64,000 bases of DNA, taken from assembly GCF_045037415.1 (NCBI RefSeq), contig NZ_CP173439.1; one strand, 5' to 3'. This document shows, piece by piece, positions 10,261 through 32,000 of the stretch (positions are counted from its first letter, which is position 1; every line of letters starts with the position of its first letter). The DNA comes from Escherichia coli (lineage in GTDB: Bacteria > Pseudomonadota > Gammaproteobacteria > Enterobacterales > Enterobacteriaceae). Under the pieces are notes generated by a model that worked only from the letters and a program-made list of their open reading frames with translations, was not told where the DNA came from and did not search any database. The position numbers and the translations under genes were made by a program.

Positions 10261-10297
10261 GGGGCCGCTTGGAATTCGGAAATTTTCCCACGCTAAG
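10261..10297. repeat. Tn21/Tn1721-subgroup-like 38-bp terminal IR remnant abutting IS21 copy 1
   Basis: GGGGCCGCTTGGAATTCGGAAATTTTCCCACGCTAAG resembles the Tn1721 IR as recalled (GGGG...AATTCGGAAA...ACGCTAAG). Confidence 0.4.
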
Positions 10298-10357
10298 TGT
10301 CAACGCCACGATGTTTGACCGTTATTTGCCATTTTCATGCCCGCTAAGATACTTTCG

Positions 10358-12327
<1,970 letters not shown>

Positions 12328-13153
12328 GTTGATGTCCTTTCTGGTGTGAGAACCTTAAGGAAACAACATGTTGGGTGGAGCGGACAATCCAAATGGTGAA
12401 TTACCGTCTTATATCACTGGCGCTGACACGGCGTAGAACCCCGAGAAAACGAGAGCATGAAAACCCCCAGGACAGTCACTGAATGGGGGACCAGCAGCGG
12501 TAAAATAACCGACATAATTTCATAATGATGCCTCCGTTAGTTATGAAGGTTTGCGGGCTGACTATACTGTTGGTGCCTGAGCAGAACTGAAGGATTGAGC
12601 GTGTTTCTGATGGAGAGTTCCACAGGTATCCACGAGATTGATTATGCCACCAGAAACACGCTCGGATGCGTTTTAACGTTACTTTTACTGGCAGGCAAGG
12701 TTTCTTTGTTTTATTTGTATTCTGACTCTCAGAATGACTCTGTTCGCTCCATAAATATTAAAATTATCAGGTAGAAGAACTCTCTTTTGTACAACTTAAC
12801 TGTGTCTTTATGGAAATGTTGTAAAGGTTCTTTTCTTTAGCTGTATCGTATTTAAATATACTTTTCTGTAAGTGGAATCTTTGCATAAGATAATAAAAAA
12901 CAGCAAATTATATTAATGGTTATGATATCCTGGGAACACCTGATTAACTAATAAGTTATTTTAATAAAAACATCTGCACTGGCAAATAATTGTACCCCCT
13001 TCAATAGGAATATTCTTATTTAATGGCCTTGTTTATATTCTAAAAATAAAACTGAGAAACTCATCATATATTTGGTAAGAAAACGCACCGGTGAACACTA
13101 TCATGAGGCTATACTGCACTTCCTCAAATTGGGATATTATGATGCATTGATTC

Positions 13154-13903
13154 ATGAAAAAGAGTATACGCAATTACAACGCATTATGGATTGTCTGGTT
13201 ATTATGGGTTACAGCTATATTATATTTTATGCTAGGCAGTCATCGTGATGGTTTTCCCAATGATGTTATTGTTATACATATAATATATCTGCTATCATTA
13301 ATAATGATTGTGTTTTTCATAATAAAAAAGGTTTATGCAATTACTATGTTTAAAAGTAAGAAAAAGCCAGTATCAACACCACAAAGTTCTTCACAGAATT
13401 TAACTGAAGTTGAACACTCTCCGGAGTTACCTTCTTTATCCGGGACGCTTTGTACCACAAACTTACCAGGATCACTAAAGGAAATGAAAGATTGTTTTAT
13501 TTCGAATGACACTTCATTTAACGGAACTTTCAAATGCGGTGGTAATATAATTATTGAGGGGCATGTTGAGGGCGATGTTATTTGTGATAATCTTGTTAAA
13601 ATTGAGAGTGGGGGGTACATCAGAGGGGAGGTTCGTGGTCAGCAAGTGCTGATCAATGGAAAAGTCGAAGGCAAATGTTATGCTGCTAGATTGTCTGTCT
13701 TGTCTAAAGGCATTATGTATGGAGATATTTTTTCTGACGAAATTTCAATTGAAAAAGGGGGGAGTTTTATCGGGTGTTCACAATTAATGGATCCGTCATC
13801 AACAAAAATAGAACATGCAATTGAGGAGAACGATACTGATAGCGAGTTATTTATAACTGATATTCAGTCAACGCTTATACCTGAAGATAACTCGATAAAG
13901 TAA
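13154..13903 (+). CDS. membrane-anchored bactofilin-domain protein
   Basis: 249 aa; two N-terminal hydrophobic helices, then bactofilin-like beta-helix repeats (GGNIIIEGHVEGDVICDNLVKIESGGYIRGEVRGQQVLINGKVEGK...IEKGGSFIG). Confidence 0.5.
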   Translation: MKKSIRNYNALWIVWLLWVTAILYFMLGSHRDGFPNDVIVIHIIYLLSLIMIVFFIIKKVYAITMFKSKKKPVSTPQSSSQNLTEVEHSPELPSLSGTLCTTNLPGSLKEMKDCFISNDTSFNGTFKCGGNIIIEGHVEGDVICDNLVKIESGGYIRGEVRGQQVLINGKVEGKCYAARLSVLSKGIMYGDIFSDEISIEKGGSFIGCSQLMDPSSTKIEHAIEENDTDSELFITDIQSTLIPEDNSIK

Positions 13904-14056
13904 ACATCGGCTTCATAAATTATCGGTATTCATTCGATAGTTTATAGGAGGAAAATACAGGGTTTATATCCCTGTATCTATTCTTATCTGAATTGTCAGT
14001 GTTGCCATATCAAATACGGATATAATAAACAGGAACTTACGAAAACAATAACTGAT

Positions 14057-14434
14057 ATGACTTCACGGCTATTTCTGAAAGCTAATATCAGGAGTCTTAG
14101 TCAAATGAATTTATACTTAAGATTAAAACAGGTGGATTTATCATTAGGTAAATGGATTGATGGAAAAGACAAGATTAGTCAATTAATAATACTTAACACG
14201 ATGAGGATCCTGTTATTTACTGTTTGCATTTATATCATTGGGTTCGTTGATTTTAATTTCTACCATATAGCTGAAAATATTATATCTAATATATACAGAA
14301 TAGATATTTACATTGTTCATGGCATAATGATAATGCCACTATTAGCTATATCTGCATTCTTCATGTTTAGTGTTTCATTTATATTCTATTATTTATTAAA
14401 GAGATGTTTTATGTTGTGCTATCCAAAAAAATAA
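14057..14434 (+). CDS. hypothetical small membrane protein
   Basis: 125-aa AT-rich ORF with hydrophobic segments; no recognisable family. Confidence 0.3.
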   Translation: MTSRLFLKANIRSLSQMNLYLRLKQVDLSLGKWIDGKDKISQLIILNTMRILLFTVCIYIIGFVDFNFYHIAENIISNIYRIDIYIVHGIMIMPLLAISAFFMFSVSFIFYYLLKRCFMLCYPKK

Positions 14435-14588
14435 TCTGTCAGCAGGCCGCAATAGTTTCTGTCGTATTTGAAACTTGATGGTATGCCTGCGATCAATGCC
14501 AACCCCTGCCAGTTTTTTCGGCACAGGAGCTACCCGGTGAAATGCAATAGCACTCAGCTTACGTGAGAGCTATTGCATATAACATTAT

Positions 14589-15191
14589 TTAAAATGAATA
14601 GCGTACTTTTAAGTTCAGCTCATTATCGATATTGTATTTACCGCCAAATGAACGCTCATAGTCGATGCCAACACGGGTGTTTTTGCCAAGCTCAAATGCA
14701 AGGCGAGCTCCAACAAGTACTCGGCTGTCATGCCCGAATTTGACGGTTGTCTCGTTATAAGCATCACTGAGAATAGTTTGATTATCATTCAATATATCAA
14801 ACTGGTAACTTGTGTCTATCTTTGCTACTATTGACCAGTCCTTACCAGTGAGTTTTCTGGCAAAATCAACACCAGTACGACCGACAAGTACATTATAATC
14901 CTTGTTATCAATAACGGTTTGATTAGCCAGATTTTGTTTACTACCTCCAATCCGTCCATAAGTAAGTTCAAACTGAGACTCAATAAACATTTCATTACTC
15001 AGTCCCCAGCGATATCCTATTTCAGCGTCTGCATAATATGAATTTGTGCTGAAGTTCTCTTTGTCTCTTGGACTTAAATAGCTATAAACGTTTGTTGAAT
15101 GGATGTATTTAGCGATAAAATCAGTATAAAAACCGTTATCAAAGAAGATGGACGTATACCCACCCAGACCATAGCTTTTAGTATCGCCATA
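14589..15191 (-). pseudogene. autotransporter beta-barrel domain, 3' fragment (ends ...LNLKVRYSF)
   Basis: Translation continues upstream of the annotated Met without a start and is cut by the IS911 end at 15192; C-terminal aromatic residue typical of outer-membrane beta-barrels; 5' part found at 43915..44477. Confidence 0.6.
15067..15191. repeat. 125-bp direct repeat copy A (partner 43915..44039), internal to the split autotransporter gene
   Basis: Identical stretch cttggacttaaatagctataaacg...agtatcgccata found at both positions. Confidence 0.75.
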
Positions 15192-15508
15192 TGAAGTGGC
15201 ACACTGAATTTGGCCACCTGAACAGAGGTGATATGCTCACCTCAGAACAACACAGGTGCTCCAATGAAAAAAAGAAATTTCAGCGCAGAGTTTAAACGCG
15301 AATCCGCTCAACTGGTTGTTGACCAGAACTACACGGTGGCAGATGCCGCCAAAGCTATGGATATCGGCCTTTCCACAATGACAAGATGGGTCAAACAACT
15401 GCGTGATGAGCGTCAGGGCAAAACACCAAAAGCCTCTCCGATAACACCAGAACAAATCGAAATACGTGAGCTGAGGAAAAAGCTACAACGCATTGAAATG
15501 GAGAATGA
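15192..15508 (+). mobile_element. IS911 left-end fragment (IS3 family), cut by IS30
   Basis: Begins TGAAGTGGCACACTG; OrfA reads [53 protein letters not shown]...IEMENEIL, then diverges into the IS30 end. Confidence 0.6.
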
Positions 15509-15545
15509 AATATTAATTCAATTGGTCAACGCAACAGTTATGTGA
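15264..15545 (+). pseudogene. IS911 OrfA, C-terminally truncated/altered
   Basis: About 93 OrfA-like residues, then a foreign tail ([11 protein letters not shown]) read from IS30 sequence. Confidence 0.6.
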
Positions 15546-16233
15546 AAACATGGGGTTGCGGAGGTTTTTTGAATGAGACGAACATTTACAGCAGAGGAAA
15601 AAGCCTCTGTTTTTGAACTATGGAAGAACGGAACAGGCTTCAGTGAAATAGCGAATATCCTGGGTTCAAAACCCGGAACGATCTTCACTATGTTAAGGGA
15701 TACTGGCGGCATAAAACCCCATGAGCGTAAGCGGGCTGTAGCTCACCTGACACTGTCTGAGCGCGAGGAGATACGAGCTGGTTTGTCAGCCAACATAAGC
15801 ATTCGTGCGATAGCTACTGCGCTGAATCGCAGTCCTTCGACGATCTCACGTGAAGTTCAGCGTAATCGGGGCAGACGCTATTACAAAGCTGTTGATGCTA
15901 ATAACCGAGCCAACAGAATGGCGAAAAGGCCAAAACCGTGCTTACTGGATCAAAATTTACCATTGCGAAAGCTTGTTCTGGAAAAGCTGGAGATGAAATG
16001 GTCTCCAGAGCAAATATCAGGATGGTTAAGGCGAACAAAACCACGTCAAAAAACGCTGCGAATATCACCTGAGACAATTTATAAAACGCTGTACTTTCGT
16101 AGCCGTGAAGCGCTACACCACCTGAATATACAGCATCTGCGACGGTCGCATAGCCTTCGCCATGGCAGGCGTCATACCCGCAAAGGCGAAAGAGGTACGA
16201 TTAACATAGTGAACGGAACACCAATTCACCGAG
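15509..16233 (+). mobile_element. IS30 fragment (left end and 5' two-thirds of the transposase)
   Basis: ATTCAATTGGTCAACGCAACAGTTATGTG end sequence; transposase matches IS30 InsI for ~220 aa, then diverges after ...NGTPIH. Confidence 0.7.
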
Positions 16234-16283
16234 TAGGCAGCCTGGCGGCTGCGGCTTGTCATGGCCTGAAATTACCGTTATAA
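15573..16283 (+). pseudogene. IS30 transposase, 3'-truncated
   Basis: MRRTFTAEEKASVFELWKNGTGFSEIANILGSKPGTIFTMLRDTGGIKPHERKRAVAHLTLSEREEIRAGLS... matches IS30 transposase N-terminus; tail is junction-derived. Confidence 0.75.
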
Positions 16284-16317
16284 AAACAGACAATATCATT
16301 GTCTTTCAGGTAGTTAT

Positions 16318-16683
16318 ATGTCCCGTTCAGCTAAACCCCGTAAACGAAAACCTGCCCCTCAAAGAAGCAAACTTCCCCGCTATGTCGTGAAGCTTCACGA
16401 CGATGACTTCTTTGACGAAGAAGACGCAGAAGCTCTGCGCTTTGATAATTTTGACGATGCCGTTGAGTGCTGCGCAGACCTGAATATTCCCTTCTTTGTG
16501 GATGCCGGAAACAAAAAGCTGGTCTTCTGGTTTGTACGTGTTGATGACGAAGGGTATCCTGAAATAGCCCGCTGCACGGAGCGGGAGTTTGCGACCATTC
16601 TTGCCGGTATCAGCGCCGGCGGCATGTACTGCCCGGAGTGTGGCACGGTTCACTGGCCGGACGGAGTCCCCCCGCCCTTCTGA
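16318..16683 (+). CDS. IS91 ORF121
   Basis: 121-aa ORF immediately upstream of and overlapping the IS91-family transposase. Confidence 0.65.
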   Translation: MSRSAKPRKRKPAPQRSKLPRYVVKLHDDDFFDEEDAEALRFDNFDDAVECCADLNIPFFVDAGNKKLVFWFVRVDDEGYPEIARCTEREFATILAGISAGGMYCPECGTVHWPDGVPPPF

Positions 16684-17870
16684 TGCTTCCCCGTTTTGCC
16701 GACATTTTTCAGCAGGGAAACCGCTGGCTAAACTGGCTGGAGAAACAACCGGAAGGTTCAGTGCGTCCGGTAGTCATTGAGTCTGTGACAAAAATCATGG
16801 CCTGCGGGACCACGCTGATGGGGTACACACAGTGGTGCTGTTCATCTCCGGACTGCAGCCACATAAAAAAGGTCTGCTTCCGGTGTAAAAGTCGCTCCTG
16901 CCCGCACTGCGGAGTGAAGGCTGGCGCACAGTGGATACAGTATCTGCTGAATCTGGTTCCCGACTGTCCGTGGCAGCATATTGTGTTCACACTTCCCTGC
17001 CAGTACTGGTCCCTGGTGTTCCACAACCGGTGGTTACTGGCAGAGATGAGCCGCATTGCTGCGGATGTGATACAGGAAATCTGCCGCCAGGCAGATGTGG
17101 TGCCGGGAATATTCACGGTCATCCACACATGGGGACGTGACCAGCAGTGGCATCCGCACATTCACCTGTCGACAACGACCGGCGGCGTGACATCAGACCA
17201 CACCTGGAAAAACCTTCATTTTTACGCCCGTAAGGTGATGAGTATGTGGCGTTACCGGATAACGCGGTTACTGTCACGGAAATATCCGGACCTGGTGATA
17301 CCGGATGCGCTGGCAGCAGAAGGAAGCAGTAAACGGGACTGGAATCGCTTCCTGGACAGTCATTACCGGCGGGGCTGGAATGTCAACGTATCCCGGGTGA
17401 TGGATAACGCCACACATGTGGCGGTGTACTTCGGCTCTTACCTGAAAAAACCGCCGGTGCCGATGAGCCGTCTGGAGCACTATGCTGGTCAGGATGAAAT
17501 TGGTCTGCGTTACAACAGTCACCGGACAAAACGGGAAGAATACCTGGTGATGAGTGGTGATGAGTTTATGGAAAGGTTCTCCTGGCATGTGGCGGATAAG
17601 GGGTTCCATATGGTGAGGTACTACGGTTTCCTGAGTCCGGTGAAGCGCCGGTTACTGGAAGATGTTGTGTACGTCATAACGGAGACGGTGAGAAAGACGG
17701 CGATGCAAATCAGGTGGAGAGGGATGTATCAGCGGTTACTGAAGGTTGACCCGCTGAAGTGCATCCTGTGCGGAGGTCAGATGCGTTTTACGGGGCTGAA
17801 GCGGGGCTACCGTCTGACAGAGCTGGTCCTGATGCATGAGCCACTGGCGCAACAGCGGGTGTGCGGCTGA
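16638..17870 (+). CDS. tnpA: IS91-family HUH (Y2) transposase
   Basis: 410 aa; N-terminal Cys-rich zinc-binding region (CFRCKSRSCPHCG), HUH-type motif HPHIHLS, C-terminal CILCGG. Confidence 0.85.
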   Translation: MWHGSLAGRSPPALLMLPRFADIFQQGNRWLNWLEKQPEGSVRPVVIESVTKIMACGTTLMGYTQWCCSSPDCSHIKKVCFRCKSRSCPHCGVKAGAQWIQYLLNLVPDCPWQHIVFTLPCQYWSLVFHNRWLLAEMSRIAADVIQEICRQADVVPGIFTVIHTWGRDQQWHPHIHLSTTTGGVTSDHTWKNLHFYARKVMSMWRYRITRLLSRKYPDLVIPDALAAEGSSKRDWNRFLDSHYRRGWNVNVSRVMDNATHVAVYFGSYLKKPPVPMSRLEHYAGQDEIGLRYNSHRTKREEYLVMSGDEFMERFSWHVADKGFHMVRYYGFLSPVKRRLLEDVVYVITETVRKTAMQIRWRGMYQRLLKVDPLKCILCGGQMRFTGLKRGYRLTELVLMHEPLAQQRVCG

Positions 17871-18063
17871 GAGCCGCATCGGAGAAGTTGCGTCCATTTT
17901 CAGGGGAATGGGGTAAAAAACCATCAGTGATATACAGTATCAATCGATAAGATCCATTTAATTGACGGCGGTGCACTCATGGCACGCAGGCAGTGTTGAA
18001 TAAACATCCGTTTTTGGGTGTTTTTTTAATCTTTTTGGGATTTAAATTCCTATCGATGAACAG

Positions 18064-18330
18064 AGATGAGGACCTTCCATCATGGGCTTCGAGGCGGGCA
18101 CGCCACGCTTTTTCAGCCAGTTCATTATCGAACAGGCTTGCCAGATTCAGTAGCAGCGGGTAACGAAAGGGGGTCCAGTAGGCAACCCTGGGCACTGCAG
18201 GATTCATCCCCTGATCGAAGAACGAAATAATGGCGTGATCCCGTTTAACGACCTGCCAGACATCAAACCGTATCCGGTGCTTCTTCTGCAGGACAAGCAG
18301 CGTATCAACCACCTCATCAAGGCGGTGCAT
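18064..18330 (-). pseudogene. N-terminal fragment of an unknown gene truncated by IS91
   Basis: ORF 17977..18330 runs into IS91 sequence; only ~89 codons lie outside the IS. Confidence 0.3.
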
Positions 18331-18361
18331 GCCAAGCTCTGCGGCGTGCAGACGCTGTACT

Positions 18362-18385
18362 TGTCAACGCCACGATCTTTGACCG
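18362..18385. repeat. solo IS21-like terminal repeat remnant
   Basis: TGTCAACGCCACGATCTTTGACCG matches the first 23 bp of the IS21-like copies with one mismatch, then diverges. Confidence 0.4.
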
Positions 18386-19117
18386 TCTTATATCGACAGA
18401 GTTATCCGGCATGGTGTCAATCCGTTCACAATTTTTCCATCGGAGCAGCCTACCACCGGTGATAACCAGACTTTGCCTGTAGTTTGTATACACAATCCCT
18501 GGCATTGAAACACGCATATGAGGTGTACTTCGGAATATGACCGTGCGCTCAGGAAGTACGGCAGATTCCGTCAAAAATTACCTGTAAAGACAGACTTCAG
18601 AAAAAACAGTGCTCGCCGCAGACCGGTGACCGGGCGAAGCCCGCGAACCGGCGAGGAAGCGCAATATATCTGTAGTTACAGTGAGCAGGTACGCCCTGAA
18701 GCCCTTATAAGCGGTTGTGTATGCTGTTTCCCTGGGATGATTTATCCACATATCCGGAGGCTCGATCCAGTAAACAGATCCATGAATGATCAACAAAGGA
18801 TCCATTAAAGATCCCCATATCGCTGCAAACCTTGTCACTCATGGGCCGGGACCACGATCACATAAGCTGTGGCATGTTACTGATAAACAGTAACATGCTA
18901 ATGATAAGCTGTATTCAGTAATCCATATACTGAAGTAAGTTAATGACATAAACTATGGTCAGTACGCCAGACTCAGTTGTTAAATACAGGCTGCAGGTTT
19001 TTCTTCAGTCAGTTAGCGGAGTTCTGACACACGATTTTCTGTTTATTCTTTTACTGTCCACAGGCTGGAGGCTTTCTGGAAAACGAAAATTCAGACATCA
19101 AAAAACTGTTCGGCGAG

Positions 19118-20095
19118 GTGGATAAGTCGTCCGGTGAGCTGGTGACACTGACACCAAACAATAACAACACCGTACAACCTGTGGCGCTGATGCGTCTGGG
19201 CGTCTTTGTACCTACCCTTAAGTCACTGAAGAACAGTAAAAAAAATACACTGTCACGCACCGATGCCACGGAAGAACTGACGCGTCTTTCTCTGGCCCGT
19301 GCAGAAGGATTCGATAAGGTTGAGATCACCGGCCCCCGCCTGGATATGGATAACGATTTCAAGACCTGGGTGGGGATCATTCATTCCTTTGCCCGCCATA
19401 ACGTAATTGGTGACAAAGTGGAACTGCCTTTTGTCGAGTTTGCAAAACTGTGTGGTATACCTTCAAGCCAGTCATCCCGCAGGCTGCGTGAGCGTATCAG
19501 CCCTTCCCTGAAGCGCATTGCCGGTACCGTGATTTCGTTTTCCCGTACCGATGAGAAGCACACCCGGGAATATATCACCCATCTGGTACAGTCAGCCTAC
19601 TACGATACTGAGCGGGATATTGTGCAGTTACAGGCCGATCCCCGCCTGTTTGAACTGTACCAGTTTGACAGAAAAGTCCTTCTCCAGCTTAAGGCGATTA
19701 ATGCCCTGAAGCGACGGGAGTCCGCCCAGGCACTCTACACCTTTATAGAGAGCCTGCCCCGGGATCCGGCACCGATATCGCTGGCGCGGCTGCGTGCACG
19801 CCTCAATCTGAAGTCTCCTGTATTTTCCCAGAACCAGACGGTCAGACGGGCAATGGAGCAGTTGCGCGAGATTGGATATCTTGATTACACGGAGATCCAG
19901 CGGGGGCGGACAAAATTCTTCTGTATTCACTACCGGCGTCCCCGGTTAAAAGCGCCGAATGATGAGAGTAAGGAAAATCCGTTGCCACCTTCACCTGCGG
20001 AAAAAGTCAGTCCGGAGATGGCGGAGAAGCTTGCCCTGCTTGAGAAACTGGGCATCACGCTGGATGACCTGGAAAAACTCTTCAAATCCCGCTGA
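19118..20095 (+). CDS. repA: RepFIB replication initiator RepA
   Basis: 325 aa, [30 protein letters not shown]..., matches the RepFIB (P307-type) RepA as recalled; flanked by iteron-like repeats. Confidence 0.9.
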
Positions 20096-20099
20096 ATAT

Positions 20100-20370
20100 A
20101 AACTGTAGTCAGTGAAGAGCGCTCCTTTACTGACTACAGCTTATATTAACTGGTGCAGTGAGTGGTCTGCTCACTGCAGTTTATATTCTGTTCCCTGCAG
20201 TGCTGTCTGTAGCTGAGCTGCCATCTGCCTGTCCCTTACGTAAGTGATCCCGTAACCTGATGCTGAGGCATTGCTCCCTTCATAAAACATGACTTACTCA
20301 CTACAGCTTATATACATGCTCCAGCTTATGTTATGTCTGTTCTGCTGACCACAGCTTATATAAGGAAGCG
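20100..20370. repeat. RepFIB iteron region (repeated ACTACAGCTTATAT-type motifs)
   Basis: At least four direct copies and one inverted copy of (c/t)actacagcttatat(a/t) within 270 bp downstream of repA. Confidence 0.6.
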
Positions 20371-20379
20371 CGTATGCCG

Positions 20380-21120
20380 TCACCTCAGGGGAGGCAGTGT
20401 ACGCAGGATCTCCGCAGCATCCCGCCCGTCACCTGTGAAAGGCACTGCCAGCGTGGCAGCCATATCCAGCGCAAAAACTCTGGTATAAACCTCCATCGAA
20501 CGTGGATCCCTGTGACCAGCCAGTGCCTGGATGACTTTCCGGGGCTGGCGGTGATAGAGCATGTGCATGATATAGCTGTGCCGGAAGGTATGTGGTGTGA
20601 CCGGAATCGAAAAGTGAACCCCGTCTGCTTCGGCCCGTCTGACAGCCTGCTTCAGCCAGTTGCGCATGGTTTCGTCGGTCACGGCCCATAATAGTTCACG
20701 ACGCCGGGGCCGGGTGGTGATCATCCAGCTTTCCATCTGCCTGACATAGCTTATATCTGTCAGCGGAACTAGGCGGACTTCATCTTTTGGCGGGCGTCCG
20801 CGTCGCGCACGCACTTTTTCGGACAGGATCCGCACAAACGGTCTTACTCCATCCAGGTCAAATGATTCCGGCGTCAGCATCCGGGCTTCGCCAATACGCA
20901 TTCCGGTATTCCAGAGGGTGGCGAACAGCATATGGTGACGCTGATCCGGCATATAGAAAAGAAGGGCACTCACTTCCGGGGCCAGCAGGTAGGCCGGTGT
21001 GCCCCCCGTGGAAGTGGCCATTCTTCTCAGGGAGAGCGCTGTTGCAAAATCCACCCCCGGCGCAATGGGTAACAGGGAGACGCGTTCTGGTGAATTCTGC
21101 AGGGGAATGACATTGTTCAT
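20380..21120 (-). CDS. int: tyrosine site-specific recombinase (integrase family) next to RepFIB
   Basis: 246 aa; C-terminal catalytic region HTFRHSY...[14 protein letters not shown]; paralogous to ResD at 318..1124. Confidence 0.8.
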
Positions 21121-21790
21121 GAGTTATTTTTCACGTAGCACACGCACTGTTTATGGATACAGGTATTCTGACCTGAACGCCCGGATCCTTCCACGACAAT
21201 AAATCGCAGCGCGCGGATCCTTTTGTTTGATTATCACGCATTATTGCGGGTAAAACCAAATGCGTAAAGGCGCATTTTGCCGCAGGGATCCCGTCTTAAG
21301 CCAGTCATGGTGCGGGCTGAGAGCTGGTTTACCGTTTTTGGGAGAATTGGGGTAATGCCAGGAACAGGCAGATACGGAGAAAAATCCTGCAGATAACCTT
21401 CTACGACAACTGAAGGTGTCTGACGCCATATTCTTAGCTACTTCTCAGTTTTAAGGCGGCTTAGTCACAACATAAGGTTATGCATAATAAGCATATTTTA
21501 TTATGTTATGGTCTTGTTCATGCATGAACTGTTATCTATTCAGTCACTTTTAACGTTTTATATCATACTGCATATGACACAATCATCTTCTATATTCAGA
21601 TTAAAAATATTATGACGACGATCAAATAAATTTAGTGAAATCATTACTTACAATAATATGTTTATGACATAATTTATCAAAAATATCCGACAACCTTCCT
21701 GAAAGGTTACTGCGAGGAGTCAAACAATGAAGTGTAATAACTTATTCAGTCTTTTTTATGCTCTCTTTATAGCAAAACCAGGAAGTTAAA

Positions 21791-22960
21791 ATGAATCAGA
21801 AGTGGAAGACGCTAATAGTTTCAGTATTAACACCATCAAGTATTATATCAGGGATTGCGTTGATAGTTCTCTGGGGATATTTCAGTCGTCTGGATCGACT
21901 TGATATTTTCTTTGATGTGATGAATATTAAAAGCATCTTGGTATTGGTTTGTTGTACAACTATTCTATCATTGATTATGATCATTTTTATTTTTTTTATA
22001 ACATCTTTTTTTATACCAATAGTTATTCCTTATGATATAAAAAATCTTCCTGCTTACAATAAGATTCAGGGTAATTTTTTATCTGTAATGATGTTATCTG
22101 GCCTCTTCCCCATGGCCTTTATATACGTGTTATACTGTGCATTTGATTTTGACCAGAGTGTTAAAGATAACTCTGGCTGGTTATCTATTTTAAGTATAGG
22201 AGTACTAATAGTTGTTATTTCAGCCATAATAAACACGAGGTATCTTGAATATGACTTATCGTTTAAAAATAATAGAATGAAACTGTTGAGACGTGTTCAG
22301 ATCTATCTTGTCATTCCGTTGTCTATTGCTTTACTGGTGCATCTTCAGGTAATTCCACTGGAGATGGTTTTTAGGAATATTGAAACTTCAGATAAGAGTA
22401 TTAATTTCAAAGTGATAGCTGAACTGGCTTTCATGTCATATTTTATTTTTATTCTGACAATACTTCCCGGCCTCATTTATCTAAAAATGAATCCACAGCA
22501 TAAACTTTCTAAAAGAATTAGTTCTGCATTTGTCGCATCCTTGATGATATTATTAGTTATATCGACTCAAATAACCGTATTACCAGTAATTTTTACCCAT
22601 TCAGTTATTAAGCTCTCAGGTATAAGTGACTTCAAAATACATAGCTACATTATTAAAACAAGTGAATATCCGGAGGAGTTTTTTTCCAATGCAGTATGGG
22701 GTAAAAAAAATATAAAACCGGGGGAATATTACTCTGTGCAGGCTGTTTCTATGTTTACGACAAACCAGTTTATTCTCCTTTGTCCCAAGGATATTATAAG
22801 GTTTTATCGGGAAAGCTGGAAGTTCGACCTGCTTAATGTAGACTTCGATACAAATACCAGGAAGAAACTCCAGGAAGAAGCAGCATATTGCGTACCAATT
22901 TCTGCAATATCTGTAAAACGATGGGATATGCCTCTTCAGGGCTCGAAACCCTCAAATTAG
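21791..22960 (+). CDS. hypothetical polytopic membrane protein (AT-rich orphan)
   Basis: 389 aa with about eight hydrophobic helices and a ~90-aa hydrophilic C-terminal domain; flanked by long AT-rich non-coding DNA. Confidence 0.5.
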   Translation: MNQKWKTLIVSVLTPSSIISGIALIVLWGYFSRLDRLDIFFDVMNIKSILVLVCCTTILSLIMIIFIFFITSFFIPIVIPYDIKNLPAYNKIQGNFLSVMMLSGLFPMAFIYVLYCAFDFDQSVKDNSGWLSILSIGVLIVVISAIINTRYLEYDLSFKNNRMKLLRRVQIYLVIPLSIALLVHLQVIPLEMVFRNIETSDKSINFKVIAELAFMSYFIFILTILPGLIYLKMNPQHKLSKRISSAFVASLMILLVISTQITVLPVIFTHSVIKLSGISDFKIHSYIIKTSEYPEEFFSNAVWGKKNIKPGEYYSVQAVSMFTTNQFILLCPKDIIRFYRESWKFDLLNVDFDTNTRKKLQEEAAYCVPISAISVKRWDMPLQGSKPSN

Positions 22961-23038
22961 AAGGCCGCTCGTGCGACTGTATTAGATAGTAATGCGGTAT
23001 GGAAAAATAGTGATGGCAAGATGAACTTGACTTGGCTA

Positions 23039-23290
<252 letters not shown>

Positions 23291-23840
23291 TTATTTCCGA
23301 ACCTCGCCCTTGCCTGCGTAACCATCCGTCGCCCCCATCCTGTTTTCAGACTGCGGAAAAAGGCAAGTTTTTATCCCCCCACAGAGATTCAATCATATAT
23401 CGCGTGTTTTGGAAGTGACAGTTCTTATTCCTGAGAATACTGCATGTGCAACACACTCGGCATCCATCGATACCACTTTTATCTCCAATAGGCAGGATAA
23501 AAAACAAGACTGTGAATTAAAGTAATCGGCAAATGAATGAGTTAGAAGATACTGAAAATGAATCAAGGACTAACCCCATAGGGAATGAAAATAATAAAAG
23601 AACATCTTGTTTTTATTTTAATGAATGAGCATGTTCTTTTATATTAATAACAAAACCTATCATTAAACAAAATGATGAATGACAGAGTTTTCTTTAAAAT
23701 AGCTTATATTATCTTACAGTAGCTGACATAGTGCAATATAAATTATCAGCTATGCCATAACGGCTTAGCAGTGTCTAAGCGTAAGAATCAAGACTTCAGT
23801 TACAGTTTACTCACGGTAGAAATATTTAATGGATTTGCCC

Positions 23841-24746
23841 CTATATTTCCAGACACCTGTTATCACTTAACCCATCACTGGCCCACTGCCGCAGATATTC
23901 CCGTGGCGAGCGATAACCCAGCGCACTATGCGGATGCCATTCGTTATAATGCTCGAACGCCTCTGCAAGGTTCTTTGCTGCCGTTAACCCGTCTGGTTTG
24001 GGCATGATACTGATGTAGTCACGCTTTATCGTTTTCACGAAGCTCTCTGCTATTCCGTTACTCTCCGGACTCCGCACTGCCGTGTTCTTCGGTTCAAGTC
24101 CCAACATCCTGGCGAACTGACGTGTTTCATTCGCCCGGTAGCATGAACCATTATCCGTCAGCCACTCCACTGGAGACGCCGGAAGCTCGCTGCCAAAGCG
24201 GCGTTCCACTGCTCCCAGCATGACGTCCTGTACTGTTTCACTGTCGAAGCCACCCGTTGTGACCGCCCAGTGCAGTGCCTCACGGTCACAGCAGTCCAGC
24301 GCGAACGTGACCCGCAGTTTTTCTCCGTTATCACAGCGGAACTCAAACCCGTCAGAGCACCATCGCTGATTACTTTCTTTCACAGCCACTCTGCCGGTAT
24401 GTGCCCGTTTCGATGGCGGTACAGCGGGTTTTCGCTCAAGCAACAGCGCATTCTGGCGCATGATCCGGTAAACACGTTTGGCATTGATCGCAGGCATACC
24501 ATCAAGTTCTGTTTGTCTGCGAAGCAGCGCCCATACCCGACGATAACCATATGTGGGTAGCTCTCCGATAACATGGTGTATACGGCGAAGCACATCCGTA
24601 TCATCCGTGTGACGGCTGCGGCGGCCGTCCTTCCAGTCATCGGCTCGTCTGAGAATGACGTGCAACTGCGCACGCGACACCCGGAGACAACGGCTGACGA
24701 AGCTTACTCCCCATCCCCGGGCAATAAGGGCGCGTGCGCTATCCAC
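23841..24746 (-). CDS. insD: IS2 InsD (OrfB, DDE transposase)
   Basis: 301 aa matching IS2 InsD ([30 protein letters not shown]...). Confidence 0.9.
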
Positions 24747-25069
24747 TTTTTTGCTCGCCCATATTCAACGGCTTCTTTAAGGAGTTCATTTTCCATCGTT
24801 TTTTTGCCGAGCAGACGCTGGAGTTCTTTAATCTGCTTCATGGCGGCAGCAAGTTCAGAGGCAGGAACGACCTGTTCTCCGGCAGCCACAGCAGTAAGAC
24901 TTCCCTCCTGGTATTGCTTACGCCAGAGAAATAGCTGGCTGGCTGCCACACCATGTTGCCGGGCAACAAGGGAGACCGTCATTCCCGGTTCAAAGCTCTG
25001 CTGAACGATAGCGATCTTTTCCTGTGTAGTACGCCGTCTGCGTTTCTCCGGCCCTAAGACATCAATCAT
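24704..25069 (-). CDS. insC: IS2 InsC (OrfA)
   Basis: [41 protein letters not shown]... from the internal Met of ORF 24704..25114. Confidence 0.9.
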
Positions 25070-25350
25070 CTGTTCTCCAATGACTAGTCTAAAAACTAGT
25101 ATTAAGACTATCACTTAAATAAGTGATATTGGTTGTCTGGAGATTCAGGGGGCCAGTCTAAATTCCGTATTGCTGGTTCTTTATCGGTAGAAAAATCAAT
25201 ATCCATAGCATCGGTCGCAGGCGCTGATACATTGCAGAGCGACCGGGTATTAGAGTCGCTATTCACTGGTTATCACTGAACGCTGCGTGATCAGGGTTGC
25301 ATTAATAAAATGATATGTTATAACATACCAATATTAACATATATTTTCGC

Positions 25351-27321
25351 ATGTATATGAACGTAATCAGAAACGTCATTTGTACATTAATCATACTCCC
25401 GATAGGGTTACAGGCAGAGACCAGTCATTCTTCTATGGCTAAAGATACAATCACCGTTGTCGCGACAGGAAATCAGAACACGGTATTTGAAACGCCGTCA
25501 ATGGTCAGTGTCGTCACGAATGACACGCCATGGAGTCAGAATGCGGTCACATCAGCCGGCATGCTGAAAGGTGTTGCCGGTCTCAGCCAGACTGGTGCAG
25601 GACGGACCAATGGGCAGACCTTTAATCTACGCGGCTATGACAAAAGCGGGGTACTTGTTCTTGTTGACGGCATCCGTCAACTCAGTGACATGGCAAAAAG
25701 CAGTGGCACTTATCTGGATCCGGCACTCGTCAAACGTATCGAAGTTGTCCGCGGACCAAACTCCAGTCTGTACGGCAGTGGCGGGCTGGGAGGTGTTGTG
25801 GACTTCAGAACTGCCGATGCAGCAGATTTCCTTCCCCCCGGAGAGACAAACGGTTTAAGTCTGTGGGGAAATATCGCCAGTGGTGACCACAGCACAGGCT
25901 CGGGGCTCACCTGGTTCGGTAAAACCGGAAAAACAGATGCGCTCCTTTCTGTCATTATGCGTAAAAGAGGTAATATCTATCAAAGTGATGGTGAGCGCGC
26001 ACCTAACAAGGAAAAACCTGCAGCCCTGTTTGCGAAAGGCTCTGTCGGTATAACAGACAGTAACAAAGCAGGTGCCAGCTTGCGTCTCTACCGGAATAAC
26101 ACCACTGAACCGGGCAATCCCACTCAGACACATGGTGACAGCGGCCTGCGTGACAGAAAAACAGTACAAAATGACGTACAGTTCTGGTACCAGTACGCTC
26201 CTGTGGATAACAGCCTCATCAATGTAAAGTCAACTTTATATCTCAGTGATATCACTATCAAGACAAACGGTCACAACAAAACGGCAGAATGGAGAAACAA
26301 CAGAACCTCCGGTGTTAATGTTGTCAACAGGAGTCATACTCTGATTTTTCCGGGAGCCCATCAGTTAAGTTATGGCGCTGAATATTACCGTCAGCAGCAG
26401 AAGCCAGAAGGCTCTGCCACACTATATCCGGAAGGAAACATTGACTTTACATCGTTGTATTTCCAGGATGAAATGACAATGAAAAGCTACCCGGTTAACA
26501 TTATCGTCGGTTCCCGCTATGACCGGTACAAGAGCTTCAATCCCCGTGCCGGAGAACTGAAAGCCGAACGCCTGTCCCCAAGGGCGGCGATTTCAGTCTC
26601 ACCGACAGACTGGCTGATGATGTACGGCTCCATATCCTCTGCATTCCGTGCCCCCACAATGGCAGAAATGTACAGGGATGATGTACATTTTTACCGCAAG
26701 GGTAAACCCAATTACTGGGTACCTAACCTTAATCTGAAACCAGAAAATAACATTACCCGTGAGATTGGCGCAGGTATTCAACTGGACGGCCTGCTTACAG
26801 GCAATGATCGGCTGCAGTTGAAAGGCGGATATTTCGGAACGGATGCCAGAAACTATATTGCCACGCGCGTGGATATGAAACGGATGCGTTCTTATTCTTA
26901 TAATGTATCCCGGGCCCGTATCTGGGGATGGGATATGCAGGGAAATTACCAGTCTGATTATTTTGACTGGATGCTTTCTTATAACCGCACGGAAAGTATG
27001 GATGCCAGCAGCAGGGAATGGCTGGGCTCCGGCAATCCTGACACACTCATCAGTGACATCAGTATACCTGTTGGTCATGGAGGAGTTTCTGCCGGATGGC
27101 GTGCTGAACTTTCGGCAGCAGCCACGCATGTGAAAAAAGGCGATCCCCATCAGGCTGGCTATGCCGTACATTCCTTTTCACTGTCTTATAAGCCTGTAAG
27201 TGTTAAAGGCTTTGAGGCATCAGTGACTCTGGATAATGCCTTCAACAAGCTTGCCATGAATGGCAAAGGAGTGCCGCTTTCAGGCAGAACTGTCAGTCTT
27301 TATACCCGTTATCAGTGGTAA
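25351..27321 (+). CDS. TonB-dependent outer-membrane receptor, heme/hemoglobin (ChuA/ShuA-like) family
   Basis: 656 aa; signal peptide, plug-domain motifs, C-terminal ...RYQW; overall resemblance to ChuA. Confidence 0.8.
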   Translation: MYMNVIRNVICTLIILPIGLQAETSHSSMAKDTITVVATGNQNTVFETPSMVSVVTNDTPWSQNAVTSAGMLKGVAGLSQTGAGRTNGQTFNLRGYDKSGVLVLVDGIRQLSDMAKSSGTYLDPALVKRIEVVRGPNSSLYGSGGLGGVVDFRTADAADFLPPGETNGLSLWGNIASGDHSTGSGLTWFGKTGKTDALLSVIMRKRGNIYQSDGERAPNKEKPAALFAKGSVGITDSNKAGASLRLYRNNTTEPGNPTQTHGDSGLRDRKTVQNDVQFWYQYAPVDNSLINVKSTLYLSDITIKTNGHNKTAEWRNNRTSGVNVVNRSHTLIFPGAHQLSYGAEYYRQQQKPEGSATLYPEGNIDFTSLYFQDEMTMKSYPVNIIVGSRYDRYKSFNPRAGELKAERLSPRAAISVSPTDWLMMYGSISSAFRAPTMAEMYRDDVHFYRKGKPNYWVPNLNLKPENNITREIGAGIQLDGLLTGNDRLQLKGGYFGTDARNYIATRVDMKRMRSYSYNVSRARIWGWDMQGNYQSDYFDWMLSYNRTESMDASSREWLGSGNPDTLISDISIPVGHGGVSAGWRAELSAAATHVKKGDPHQAGYAVHSFSLSYKPVSVKGFEASVTLDNAFNKLAMNGKGVPLSGRTVSLYTRYQW

Positions 27322-27327
27322 CAAATC

Positions 27328-28119
27328 ATGATGAAAAATACAGGTTATATCTTAGCTCTTTGTCTGACAGCATCGGGGCATGTCCTGGCCCACGATGTCT
27401 GGATTACAGGTAAACAGGCAGAGAACAACATTACCGCAGAGATTGGTTATGGTCATAATTTCCCCTCAAAGGGCACAATTCCTGACAGAAGGAATTTCTT
27501 TGAAAATCCCCGGATTTATAACGGGAAAGAGACAATAACACTGAAGCCAGCGTCCACGGATTATGTCTATAAAACTGAGTCTGCAAGCAAAGATAATGGC
27601 TACGTTTTGTCAACATATATGAAACCGGGATACTGGTCGAGAACCTCTTCAGGATGGAAACCGGTCAGCCGGGAGGGCAGAAATGATGTGGCTTACTGTG
27701 AGTTTGTCACTAAATATGCGAAATCTTTTATTCCTGGTGAACAGCAGATGCCAGCACAACTCTATCAGTCTCCAACGGGGCATGAGCTTGAAATCATTCC
27801 GTTATCCGATATAAGTCGTTTCAGTGAAGATGTGAAGCTGAAAGTCCTGTATAAAACGTCCCCGCTCGCCGGAGCTATCATGGAGCTTGACTCGGTCAGT
27901 TATCTGAAATCATCCCGTCATACTCATGCAGTTGAGCACAAACATCCTGTTCATAAAGCAGAACTCACCTTTGTAACTAATGAGGATGGTATCGTCACAG
28001 TACCTTCTCTTCATATTGGACAGTGGCTGGCGAAAGTCCAAAATAAGAAAAGTTTTCAGGACAAAAGCCTGTGTGATGAAACTGTCGATGTGGCAACTTT
28101 AAGTTTCTCCCGAAATTAA
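27328..28119 (+). CDS. periplasmic protein co-encoded with the receptor (possibly DUF4198-like)
   Basis: 263 aa with signal peptide, start 6 bp after the receptor stop; family assignment from memory only. Confidence 0.45.
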   Translation: MMKNTGYILALCLTASGHVLAHDVWITGKQAENNITAEIGYGHNFPSKGTIPDRRNFFENPRIYNGKETITLKPASTDYVYKTESASKDNGYVLSTYMKPGYWSRTSSGWKPVSREGRNDVAYCEFVTKYAKSFIPGEQQMPAQLYQSPTGHELEIIPLSDISRFSEDVKLKVLYKTSPLAGAIMELDSVSYLKSSRHTHAVEHKHPVHKAELTFVTNEDGIVTVPSLHIGQWLAKVQNKKSFQDKSLCDETVDVATLSFSRN

Positions 28120-28142
28120 CAATACTATTCCCTGCCCTGAAA

Positions 28143-28847
28143 TTGTAAGCGTGCAGCAAGAACCGTATTGACGGGGATGTGTTATTCAGTCGGCAGTGCT
28201 ACGCGCCAGGGGAGCAGTTCGCCGACCCGGTTTATCGGCCAGTCGGCTATGACGTCAAGGACATAGCGGAGGTAGCTTTCTGGCTCCACTCCGTTCAGTT
28301 TGCACGTCCCGATCAGGCTGTACAGCAGCGCTCCCCGCTCTCCTCCATGATCCGAACCGAAGAACAGGTAGTTTTTGCGGCCCAGACTGACCATCCGCAA
28401 CGCATTTTCAGCGATGTTATTGTCCGCCTCAGCCCAGCCATCATCTGCATAGTACGTCAGCGCCGGCCACTGGTTCAGGGCGTATGCGAACGCTTTCGCC
28501 AGTTCTGAGTGTCGCGACAGGGTTTTCATCTTTTCACGCAGCCAGCTTTCCAGGGATTTCAGCAGCGGTTTCGTTTTCAACTGACGTTCGGCAAGGCGCT
28601 GCTCCGCCGTCATTCCCCTTATCTCTGCCTCGATGGCGTACAGTTCGCCGATCCGTTTCAGCGCTTCCTCCGTCAGGGTTGACGGGGTGCGAACGTGCAC
28701 ATCGTGGATTTTACGGCGGGCGTGAGCCCAACAGGCGGCTTCCGTTATCCGGTCATCCCGGTACAGCTCGTTGAACCCGGCGTATGCATCCGCCTGCAGT
28801 ACACCACTGAACCCCGCAAGATGGGTCTGCGGATGGATGCCTTTTCT
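28143..28847 (-). mobile_element. IS66-family element fragment, truncated by IS21-like copy 2
   Basis: Terminal GTAAGCGTGCAGCAAGAACCG characteristic of IS66-family IRs; adjacent ORF is the C-terminal part of an IS66-type transposase. Confidence 0.6.
28182..28847 (-). pseudogene. IS66-family transposase, 5'-truncated
   Basis: ...[56 protein letters not shown] is a conserved IS66 TnpC C-terminus; reading frame enters the IS21 end. Confidence 0.65.
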
Positions 28848-28908
28848 GTGTCAACGCCACGATGTTTGACCGTTATTTGCCATTTTCATGCCCGCTAAGA
28901 TACTTTCG

Positions 28909-30878
<1,970 letters not shown>

Positions 30879-32000
30879 GTTGATGTCCTTTCTGGTGTGA
30901 GAACCTTAAGGAAACAACATGTTGGGTGGAGCGGACAATCCAAATGGTGAATTACCGTCTTATATCACTGGCGCTGACAAACAGGGATATTGCGACAATT
31001 CACAGCAATATCGTGCAGGAATACAACACCCTTAAAGGGTATAGCTGGAAATGGCTGGGTGGGGTGTCAGTGGCTTTTCTGGTTATGTTCTGTGTGCTCG
31101 GATGGGGAATGAAAACAATACTCGACAGGAACTACAACGCCACAGCGGCGGTGTATCAGAAAGTTGTGACACTGGAAGATAAACTGGTGGAGAAACCTGT
31201 CACGGGGAAGAGCCGGAAAAACTGACGCGCTTCGCTTGTCCAACGCCTCACGACCCGCGAAAGAATTTCGCGAACCGTTCACTGTTTTTTTCAATATGAT
31301 TCTGTCTGCTTTGGTCGATAAAGCAGACGATAGTATTCCAGCCTTCGTATATATAACGGTACGTGCTCATCAGTAAGAGCTGGCGGTATTGTGTTATCAG
31401 GGGGAAGTTTTTTCAGATACTCACGAAATGCCTGGCTTGATGCCATAAAATCTACAGCTGCATCGATAATATGTGGGATATTTTCATCTAATTTTGTCAT
31501 GATGATTGATCTGATATTATCACGGTTCGTGAATTATAGTATGTCACTATTATTTATGCTTTAGTGAACCAGAAAAAATCCCCCGTTGGTATAGGGGGAT
31601 ATGTAAGGAGAAATAACTTCGCAGGTGTTCTTGTTTGTATTATAACGTGAAAAGAATGCACGCAACTTAATTAATCTGCCGTACTTCCTTTCAGTTTTCA
31701 AGATAAGGTTTATAATAAAACATGGAATGGAAGCAAGCTTTAAGGTTTCAGCTCTAAAATTTTTAATATCTATTAACTAGCTAGTTGTTGTCCTTGTGAG
31801 CATGTTGTATATAAAAGCTAGGATAATATCCTGACCGGAGTATTCATATTCCTTATCCCCTCTGTGTTCTCAGAGGTTTTTTTCTGTATTTAATGATATG
31901 AGCTGGAATGCGATTCCGGCCCCCCCCGTTTACATAATTCTCCCTGACATACGGCACCGGAATCGCATTGATTTTGCATTGCTAATGTCTAACTGTGCTG

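Follow-up and report, generated by a model that had tools for sequence, protein, structure and literature searches.

An AT-rich gene beside RepFIB on Escherichia coli plasmids encodes a membrane protein of an undescribed family with a possible role in envelope exclusion or defense

The locus and its surroundings

The window, by which we mean the whole 64,000-nucleotide stretch of Escherichia coli DNA that was analyzed (contig NZ_CP173439.1), carries an AT-rich gene for a 389-aa protein. As the sequence-only reading had described, the gene lies between a RepFIB module, with repA and a tyrosine recombinase gene, on one side and a complete IS2 on the other. The region contains the following features:

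10297-12428 and 28848-30979: an IS21-family element (istA, istB; 2132 bp) in two direct copies that are 99.86% identical
19118..20095, + strand: RepFIB repA, upstream of the 389-aa gene
20380..21120, - strand: tyrosine recombinase gene (int), upstream of the 389-aa gene
21241..21429, - strand: annotated 62-aa ORF between int and the 389-aa gene
21430..21790, + strand: AT-rich upstream region of 361 bp (GC 0.294), which should hold the promoter
21727..21789, + strand: predicted upstream ORF of 20 codons (MKCNNLFSLFYALFIAKPGS), read from the sequence
21791..22960, + strand: protein-coding gene for the 389-aa protein, an ORF in a stretch that pUTI89, VR50, and other plasmids share at 99.7 to 100% identity
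23830..25160: complete IS2, 1331 bp, with terminal sequences TGGATTTGCCCC... and ...GGGGGCCAGTCTA
25351-28119, + strand: gene for a TonB-dependent receptor of the hemoglobin/transferrin/lactoferrin family (656 aa), then a gene for a DUF4198 protein (263 aa)

The 389-aa ORF, already called in the sequence-only reading and confirmed here, begins with ATG, includes its stop codon within the coordinates above, and is preceded by a Shine-Dalgarno sequence, AGGAAG, at 21780-21785. Its product is WP_001072358.1 of pUTI89, or nearly so, which is labeled "hypothetical protein" in that record. The gene has a GC content of 0.335 and a GC3 of 0.328, compared with 0.527 for repA, 0.574 for int, and 0.49 for the whole window, bearing out the earlier judgment that its very low GC marks it as foreign to the backbone. 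The same reading had described ~650 bp of AT-rich DNA upstream; this description stands for the proximal 361 bp (29% GC) but not for the rest of the ~670-bp gap back to int (upstream of 21430), which has a GC content of 0.47 to 0.50 and holds the 62-aa ORF. Several GenBank plasmid records label that ORF "serine/threonine protein kinase," RefSeq calls it a "hypothetical protein," and it had no match in NCBIfam or PADLOC. Since 62 aa is far too short for a kinase, we doubt the kinase label, which is probably a propagated annotation error.

A consensus scan of 21430-21790 returned no strong sigma-70 match on the + strand, no Rfam family was matched around the 389-aa gene, and repeats there were found at chance level only. 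The 20-codon upstream ORF has a strong Shine-Dalgarno sequence (GAGGAG, 21714-21719) and ends one base 5' of the ATG of the 389-aa gene; it could encode a leader or a small hydrophobic peptide. A conserved leader peptide was considered and rejected, as the 20-codon ORF is absent upstream of the other family members checked.

Downstream of the 389-aa gene there are only scattered short pieces similar to other loci, which are probably repeat-element debris. At the place of IS2, pUTI89 has a gene for a PapB-family regulator and only part of IS2. The TonB-dependent receptor and the DUF4198 protein form an iron-uptake pair and are annotated alike on pUTI89 and FDAARGOS_1376. The two IS21-family copies, whose starts are 18,551 bp apart, bracket a segment of ~16.4 kb (12429-28847) that contains RepFIB repA, int, the 389-aa gene, IS2, and the TonB-dependent receptor gene, and this bracketed segment resembles a composite transposon. 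The neighbors of the 389-aa gene in the window are replication, recombinase, IS, and iron-uptake genes, and PADLOC placed no known defense gene adjoining it in the 64-kb window. A defense island in the window was considered and rejected; the match that PADLOC reported between IstB and DrmD was judged to be a cross-reaction between related ATPases.

Distribution and constraint in E. coli

DNA of the 389-aa gene was found in 1,256 of 5,426 complete E. coli genomes (~23%) and in 1,195 PLSDB plasmids. Nearly all occurrences in the complete genomes were plasmid-borne (1,272 of 1,279), and in E. coli the gene lies almost always beside RepFIB-int. Since RepFIB repA and int are present in ~3,100 complete E. 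coli genomes, ~40% of genomes with RepFIB-int carry the gene. On one plasmid that does not carry it, a block of IS1, IS26, and TEM-1 begins right after the 62-aa ORF. Among the plasmids that carry the gene are well-studied ones from ExPEC, including pUTI89 and that of RS218. An identical protein sequence is present on at least 1,000 contigs in public data, each source name given to the protein and its relatives is "hypothetical," and a literature search by accession number returned no paper naming the protein. The sequence has been catalogued thousands of times, yet never characterized.

There are two plasmid alleles of the gene, with identities to the window copy of at least 99% and of ~92%. 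The dN/dS ratio was 0.29 between these alleles and 0.08 between the 389-aa gene and a 60%-identical copy from Lelliottia. Given these ratios and the end-to-end alignment of relatives of 375 to 420 aa, the ORF is a real, intact gene under purifying selection and not a chance ORF. Between the same two plasmids, dN was 0.047 for the 389-aa gene versus 0.001 to 0.004 for repA and int, so the gene evolves faster than its neighbors, though still under constraint. Most of the differences between alleles (31 of 38) fall within residues 1 to 256 of the protein.

Database copies of the gene vary in length at three homopolymer runs:

21990..21997, + strand: T8 run at codon 67, with T7 and T9 variants in otherwise identical plasmids (by alignment)
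22679-22685, + strand: T7 run inside the 389-aa gene
22703..22710, + strand: A8 run at codon 305, which, like the T7 run, is the end point of some database copies

At the first run, T7 or T9 shifts the frame and leaves a 282-aa ORF that starts at Met107, the shortened protein being P0029 in our set. The copies that end at the T7 run at 22679-22685 or at the A8 run are P0033, P0035, and P0067, and the frameshifted products in databases measure 282, 304, and 307 aa. Homopolymer phase variation at the T8 run was considered and rejected: among 794 complete E. coli genome records, 761 (96%) have T8, 21 have T7, and ~2 have T9. These counts point to sporadic inactivation or to errors in sequencing and not to a switch.

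Family, fold, and topology

A search of 1.84 billion cluster representatives recovered 113 relatives of the 389-aa protein, of which ~60 are full length (375 to 420 aa) and align end to end at 19 to 34% identity. The family comprises ~110 clusters at 50% identity and is distributed in Enterobacterales and, by fold, in Pseudomonas. Searches against family libraries were negative. Pfam gave a chance-level match only for the window protein and none at an E value of ≤0.001 in 60 family members; NCBIfam had no match to the window protein; PHROGs had none for the window protein or for three of four relatives, the fourth giving one match at chance level; and PADLOC-DB 2.0 (5,027 models, E values up to 1) had none for the window protein or 10 diverse relatives. 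Profile searches of the PDB returned only designed proteins and chance helical matches, and by fold, the AlphaFold model of the 389-aa protein had no solved counterpart there. A Foldseek search against AFDB50 returned only uncharacterized proteins, from Enterobacterales and from Pseudomonas, Halopseudomonas, and Stutzerimonas. From the results in the family libraries, the PDB, and AFDB50, we conclude that the 389-aa protein is a member of an undescribed family with an undescribed fold. The remote homology search that the sequence-only reading had proposed as a check has thus been run, and it brought up no housekeeping transporter in Pfam (60 members), NCBIfam, or the PDB by sequence and by fold. 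A tblastn search of 50,697 phage records found no homologue of the 389-aa protein or of P0100, a relative that lies in a prophage of Pantoea, and pattern scans of IMG/VR found no homologue of the family, which indicates that the prophage-borne case is rare.

The protein is divided as follows:

Residues 1-268, 21791..22594, + strand: membrane domain, from hydropathy, loop charges, and AlphaFold helices
Residues ~8-30, 48-78, 93-117, 129-150, 167-190, 207-229, and 244-268: the helices
Residues 269-389, 22595..22957, + strand: C-terminal alpha/beta domain (the ~115-residue domain), predicted to be periplasmic

Hydropathy and the AlphaFold model agree on seven membrane helices, correcting the approximately eight of the sequence-only reading; the soluble C-terminal domain that it had proposed is present in the model. 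With a 60-sequence alignment as input, AlphaFold2 produced a model (pLDDT 92.8, pTM 0.87) in which the seven helices are followed by an alpha/beta domain at residues ~277 to 383. This domain is built from a small beta-barrel core plus helices and contains the motifs SGISD, W303, and C-P. Averaged over 60 relatives, the net charges of the inside segments (N terminus and loops 4 and 6) are +1.4, +2.2, and +2.0, while those of outside loops 1, 3, and 5 are -0.4, -0.2, and -1.0, and the window protein's own loop charges also obey the positive-inside rule. By this pattern, the N terminus of the 389-aa protein is predicted to be cytoplasmic and its C-terminal domain to lie in the periplasm, a location on which the sequence-only reading had been silent.

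Only P226, C331, and C367 are invariant in 60 family sequences. C331 and C367 are the only invariant cysteines of the family, and since both belong to the C-terminal domain with its predicted periplasmic location, they suggest a disulfide there. Conservation is highest in periplasmic loop 1, which has an RLD motif (0.51), and in the C-terminal domain (0.41), and it is lowest in the cytoplasmic loops (0.21 to 0.30), which are 7 to 16 residues long. Judging from this pattern, the working surface of the protein appears to face the periplasm, and its cytoplasmic parts are too small to sense intracellular events. Since the invariant residues are only one proline and two cysteines, binding or blocking is favored over catalysis.

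Contexts of relatives and possible function

The genes of relatives have GC contents of 29 to 34% in loci of 45 to 53%, and two family copies that are less AT-rich (0.41 and 0.44) are still below their own surroundings. No neighbor gene is common to the family contexts examined, in keeping with the earlier remark that the window gene has no functional partner. One relative, P0100 (E value of 5e-37, 27% identical), belongs to a P2-like prophage of Pantoea, where its gene is flanked by orthologues of gpG (46%) and gpFI (67%) and is encoded on the strand opposite to theirs, a position at which the P2 record has fun(Z), described as "cloned gene blocks growth of T5." The fun locus is the second defense-enriched hotspot of P2 and has three validated systems (Vassallo et al. 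2022, PMC9519451). P0103 is convergent with a PDC-S31 candidate gene in a P4-integrase/AlpA/primase island, and P0201 and P0203, from Klebsiella and Salmonella, are at the far end of P4-integrase/PemK/Ash islands. The Lelliottia copy, P0045, is flanked by two integrase genes and is followed at a distance of 1.6 kb by an HEC-08 candidate; PDC-S31 and HEC-08 are PADLOC candidate genes, and both are within 2 kb of the relatives. In a Xenorhabdus ICE, P0084 is directly 3' of TraG_N genes, the slot after traG that F traS and SXT eex occupy as well. Two family copies in E. coli, one of them on a 459-kb contig, are beside IS elements and adhesin genes.

Some further observations concern these loci. 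The prophage that carries P0100 also carries Septu (L012 12894-14634; PtuA, E value of 3.5e-92; PtuB, E value of 1.5e-64), with PtuAB located between baseplate gene V and the tail gene S region. At the end of the P4-integrase/PemK/Ash islands, a 1,263-aa protein is encoded convergently with the family member (L024 8294-12085, - strand; also L025, L026, and L028). It has no Pfam match, its sole match is a weak N-terminal one to LmuA (E value of 3e-4), and it may be another uncharacterized cargo gene. We also considered a functional link between the 389-aa gene and the adjacent tyrosine recombinase of the window. The Lelliottia copy is likewise divergent from an integrase, but its integrase and the recombinase of the window show no relationship outside the catalytic motif, and other family contexts have no adjacent integrase, so this link was rejected.

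Given relatives at mobile-element sites of anti-phage cargo and an architecture suited to the envelope, exclusion or defense is the best-supported reading of the 389-aa protein. We tentatively propose that it is an envelope-level exclusion or defense factor of a new family, while rating this at clearly less than an even chance. We are more doubtful of the fuller proposal that it is the founding member of a new-fold, single-protein family that acts from the periplasm to keep out phage or conjugative DNA and has spread, across Enterobacterales and Pseudomonas, as cargo of IncFIB plasmids, prophages, satellite-like elements, and ICEs. Under the exclusion-or-defense reading, the gene would be accessory cargo of mobile elements, here of the RepFIB-int region of an IncF plasmid, and the protein would stand alone in the inner membrane, presenting its conserved first periplasmic loop and disulfide-stabilized C-terminal domain to the periplasm. 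There it would interfere with something that crosses the envelope. The most likely target would be the DNA-delivery machinery of an incoming phage, resulting in superinfection exclusion; alternatively, the protein could target the mating channel through which a conjugative element arrives, resulting in entry exclusion. The cell, and the plasmid with it, would be protected with no need for a cytoplasmic sensor or a partner protein.

The case for exclusion or defense is positional and architectural, and we infer the topology, the disulfide, and the function. The sequence-only reading had raised an exclusion or defense factor as a possibility, and the circumstantial evidence that has since accrued to it consists of the fun locus, the P4 islands, the ICE, the PDC-S31 and HEC-08 candidates, and the periplasmic surface. 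Against it, none of the 5,027 PADLOC models and no PHROG was matched, the family is absent from the phage genome collections searched, the window neighbors are not defense genes, and one relative, P0095, follows LemA and TPM genes at an ordinary chromosomal location. IncF plasmids, moreover, already possess TraS and TraT for entry exclusion, which counts against a further exclusion protein. Positional association is in itself weak evidence, since cargo sites of this kind also hold nondefense genes (Rousset 2022, PMC9122126).

Comparison with known systems shows both likenesses and differences. Like the 389-aa protein, SieA of P22 is a stand-alone, integral inner-membrane protein carried as nonessential mobile-element cargo in Enterobacteria. 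SieA needs no partner, its subtypes are highly diverged, and it blocks phage DNA injection, probably via the periplasmic/membrane conduit of ejection proteins (PMC10461980), which is the mode of action that we predict for the 389-aa protein. However, SieA has 162 to 164 aa, three predicted membrane helices, and no periplasmic domain (PMC10461980), whereas the 389-aa protein has seven helices and a ~115-residue domain. Membership in the SieA family was rejected: hhalign of the 60-sequence profile against P22 SieA gave a probability of 0.4% (E value of 0.16), and the 389-aa protein is outside the size range of SieA proteins (~160 to 200 aa, 3 to 4 helices). The likeness to P2 fun(Z) lies in the slot between gpG and gpFI, which P0100 occupies on the opposite strand, and in AT richness (GC of 0.33 for fun(Z) and 0.34 for P0100). 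Fun(Z) differs in being a 528-aa soluble P-loop protein without a membrane segment, and homology was rejected, as tblastn with the window protein and P0100 against phage records including P2 found none. The fun-locus position belongs to P0100; the window copy is plasmid-borne and adjoins RepFIB rather than being part of a prophage.

F TraS and the Eex proteins of SXT/R391, of ~140 to 170 aa, are located in the inner membrane of the recipient, where they prevent the transfer of incoming DNA, and their genes come immediately after traG. Only the Xenorhabdus relative P0084 shares the traG-adjacent position, the window gene not being part of a transfer operon, and the comparison of the 389-aa protein with TraS and Eex covered size and position. 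O-antigen modification of the GtrC type was also considered and rejected (hhalign probability of 0.5%), and no gtrA- or gtrB-like neighbors were found in any family context examined.

Among other explanations, the protein might serve the host at its envelope in ways unrelated to conflict between elements, such as transport, stress tolerance, or modulation of the surface or virulence in extraintestinal E. coli. This would be consistent with its carriage by ExPEC plasmids (such as pUTI89 and that of RS218) beside iron-uptake genes and with the position of some relatives next to adhesin/autotransporter and fimbrial genes. It would also be consistent with the context of P0095 (L011 5377-8137), in which the family member starts 23 bp after the LemA and TPM-domain genes in an apparent chromosomal operon and which is the only context not resembling mobile cargo. 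Nevertheless, no transporter or enzyme family was matched in 60 members, invariance across the family is limited to the one proline and two cysteines, and neighbors differ between loci. We consider a role in host benefit unlikely.

An orphan immunity protein is also improbable, and more so than a host function. In this case, the periplasmic domain would bind a competitor's toxin acting in the periplasm or at the inner membrane, whether a colicin or bacteriocin or an effector delivered by a type VI or contact-dependent system. Such a role would suit a protein of the inner membrane that is conserved on its periplasmic side and shows no sign of catalysis, and likewise a gene that stands alone on mobile elements. 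Integral-membrane immunity proteins are known for ColM-type toxins (PMC5277000), and Cmi, PmiA, and BmiA act protectively where the inner membrane faces the periplasm, as the 389-aa family would in this case; like that family, they are poorly conserved in sequence and are often on mobile elements. A colicin M-domain gene is found 370 bp from one of the relatives, P0109, but this gene is already paired with a convergent 113-aa YebF/Cmi-like gene, and the convergent slot beside a colicin M gene is the classical cmi position (PMC5277000). Similarly, the Lelliottia copy has a Tlde1-domain sequence 530 bp away, but this is a 33-aa fragment and lies downstream, not upstream. No toxin gene adjoins the family member in other contexts or in the window. 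The known immunity proteins are also built differently: Cmi is periplasmic, with a YebF fold and a single anchor, and PmiA and BmiA are ~137 aa long with 4 and 3 helices, respectively (PMC5277000), whereas 60 members of the 389-aa family gave no YebF match in Pfam and the family has no consistently linked toxin gene. Immunity to ColM of the PmiA type in particular, which was suggested by the structural relatives in Pseudomonas and by the ColM neighbor, was rejected on account of the size of PmiA and the Cmi-like gene at the ColM locus.

We regard as very unlikely an abortive-infection effector, in which case the protein would be a membrane pore that stays closed until infection triggers its opening and the death of the cell. 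The positions on mobile elements and in hotspots would be the same as for exclusion, and single membrane proteins can serve as suicide effectors, which favors this explanation. However, the protein has no cytoplasmic sensing domain, its loops of 7 to 16 residues being poorly conserved, and there is no conserved partner gene for a sensor. Least probable of all is a functionless remnant that hitchhikes by linkage to RepFIB: frameshift variants occur at homopolymer runs in databases, the gene is absent from ~60% of RepFIB-int genomes and replaceable by IS and resistance modules, and H-NS silencing seems likely given the low GC, but dN/dS is well under 1 at two levels of divergence, the T8 run is in frame in 96% of complete-genome copies, and relatives of full length are maintained in many genera and kinds of element.

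If envelope exclusion or defense is the true explanation, the 389-aa protein would represent a new architecture and a new family for a known kind of function. Under the fuller proposal, it would rank with the commonest unrecognized obstacles that phages or plasmids meet on entering clinical E. coli. Should it prove to exclude neither, the family would still be a large one, with a confidently predicted fold that has no solved relative. Exclusion of phages would have consequences for the host range of phage therapy in clinical E. coli and would bring a new architecture to the few proteins known to block injection, and exclusion of plasmids would matter for how IncF resistance and virulence plasmids spread.
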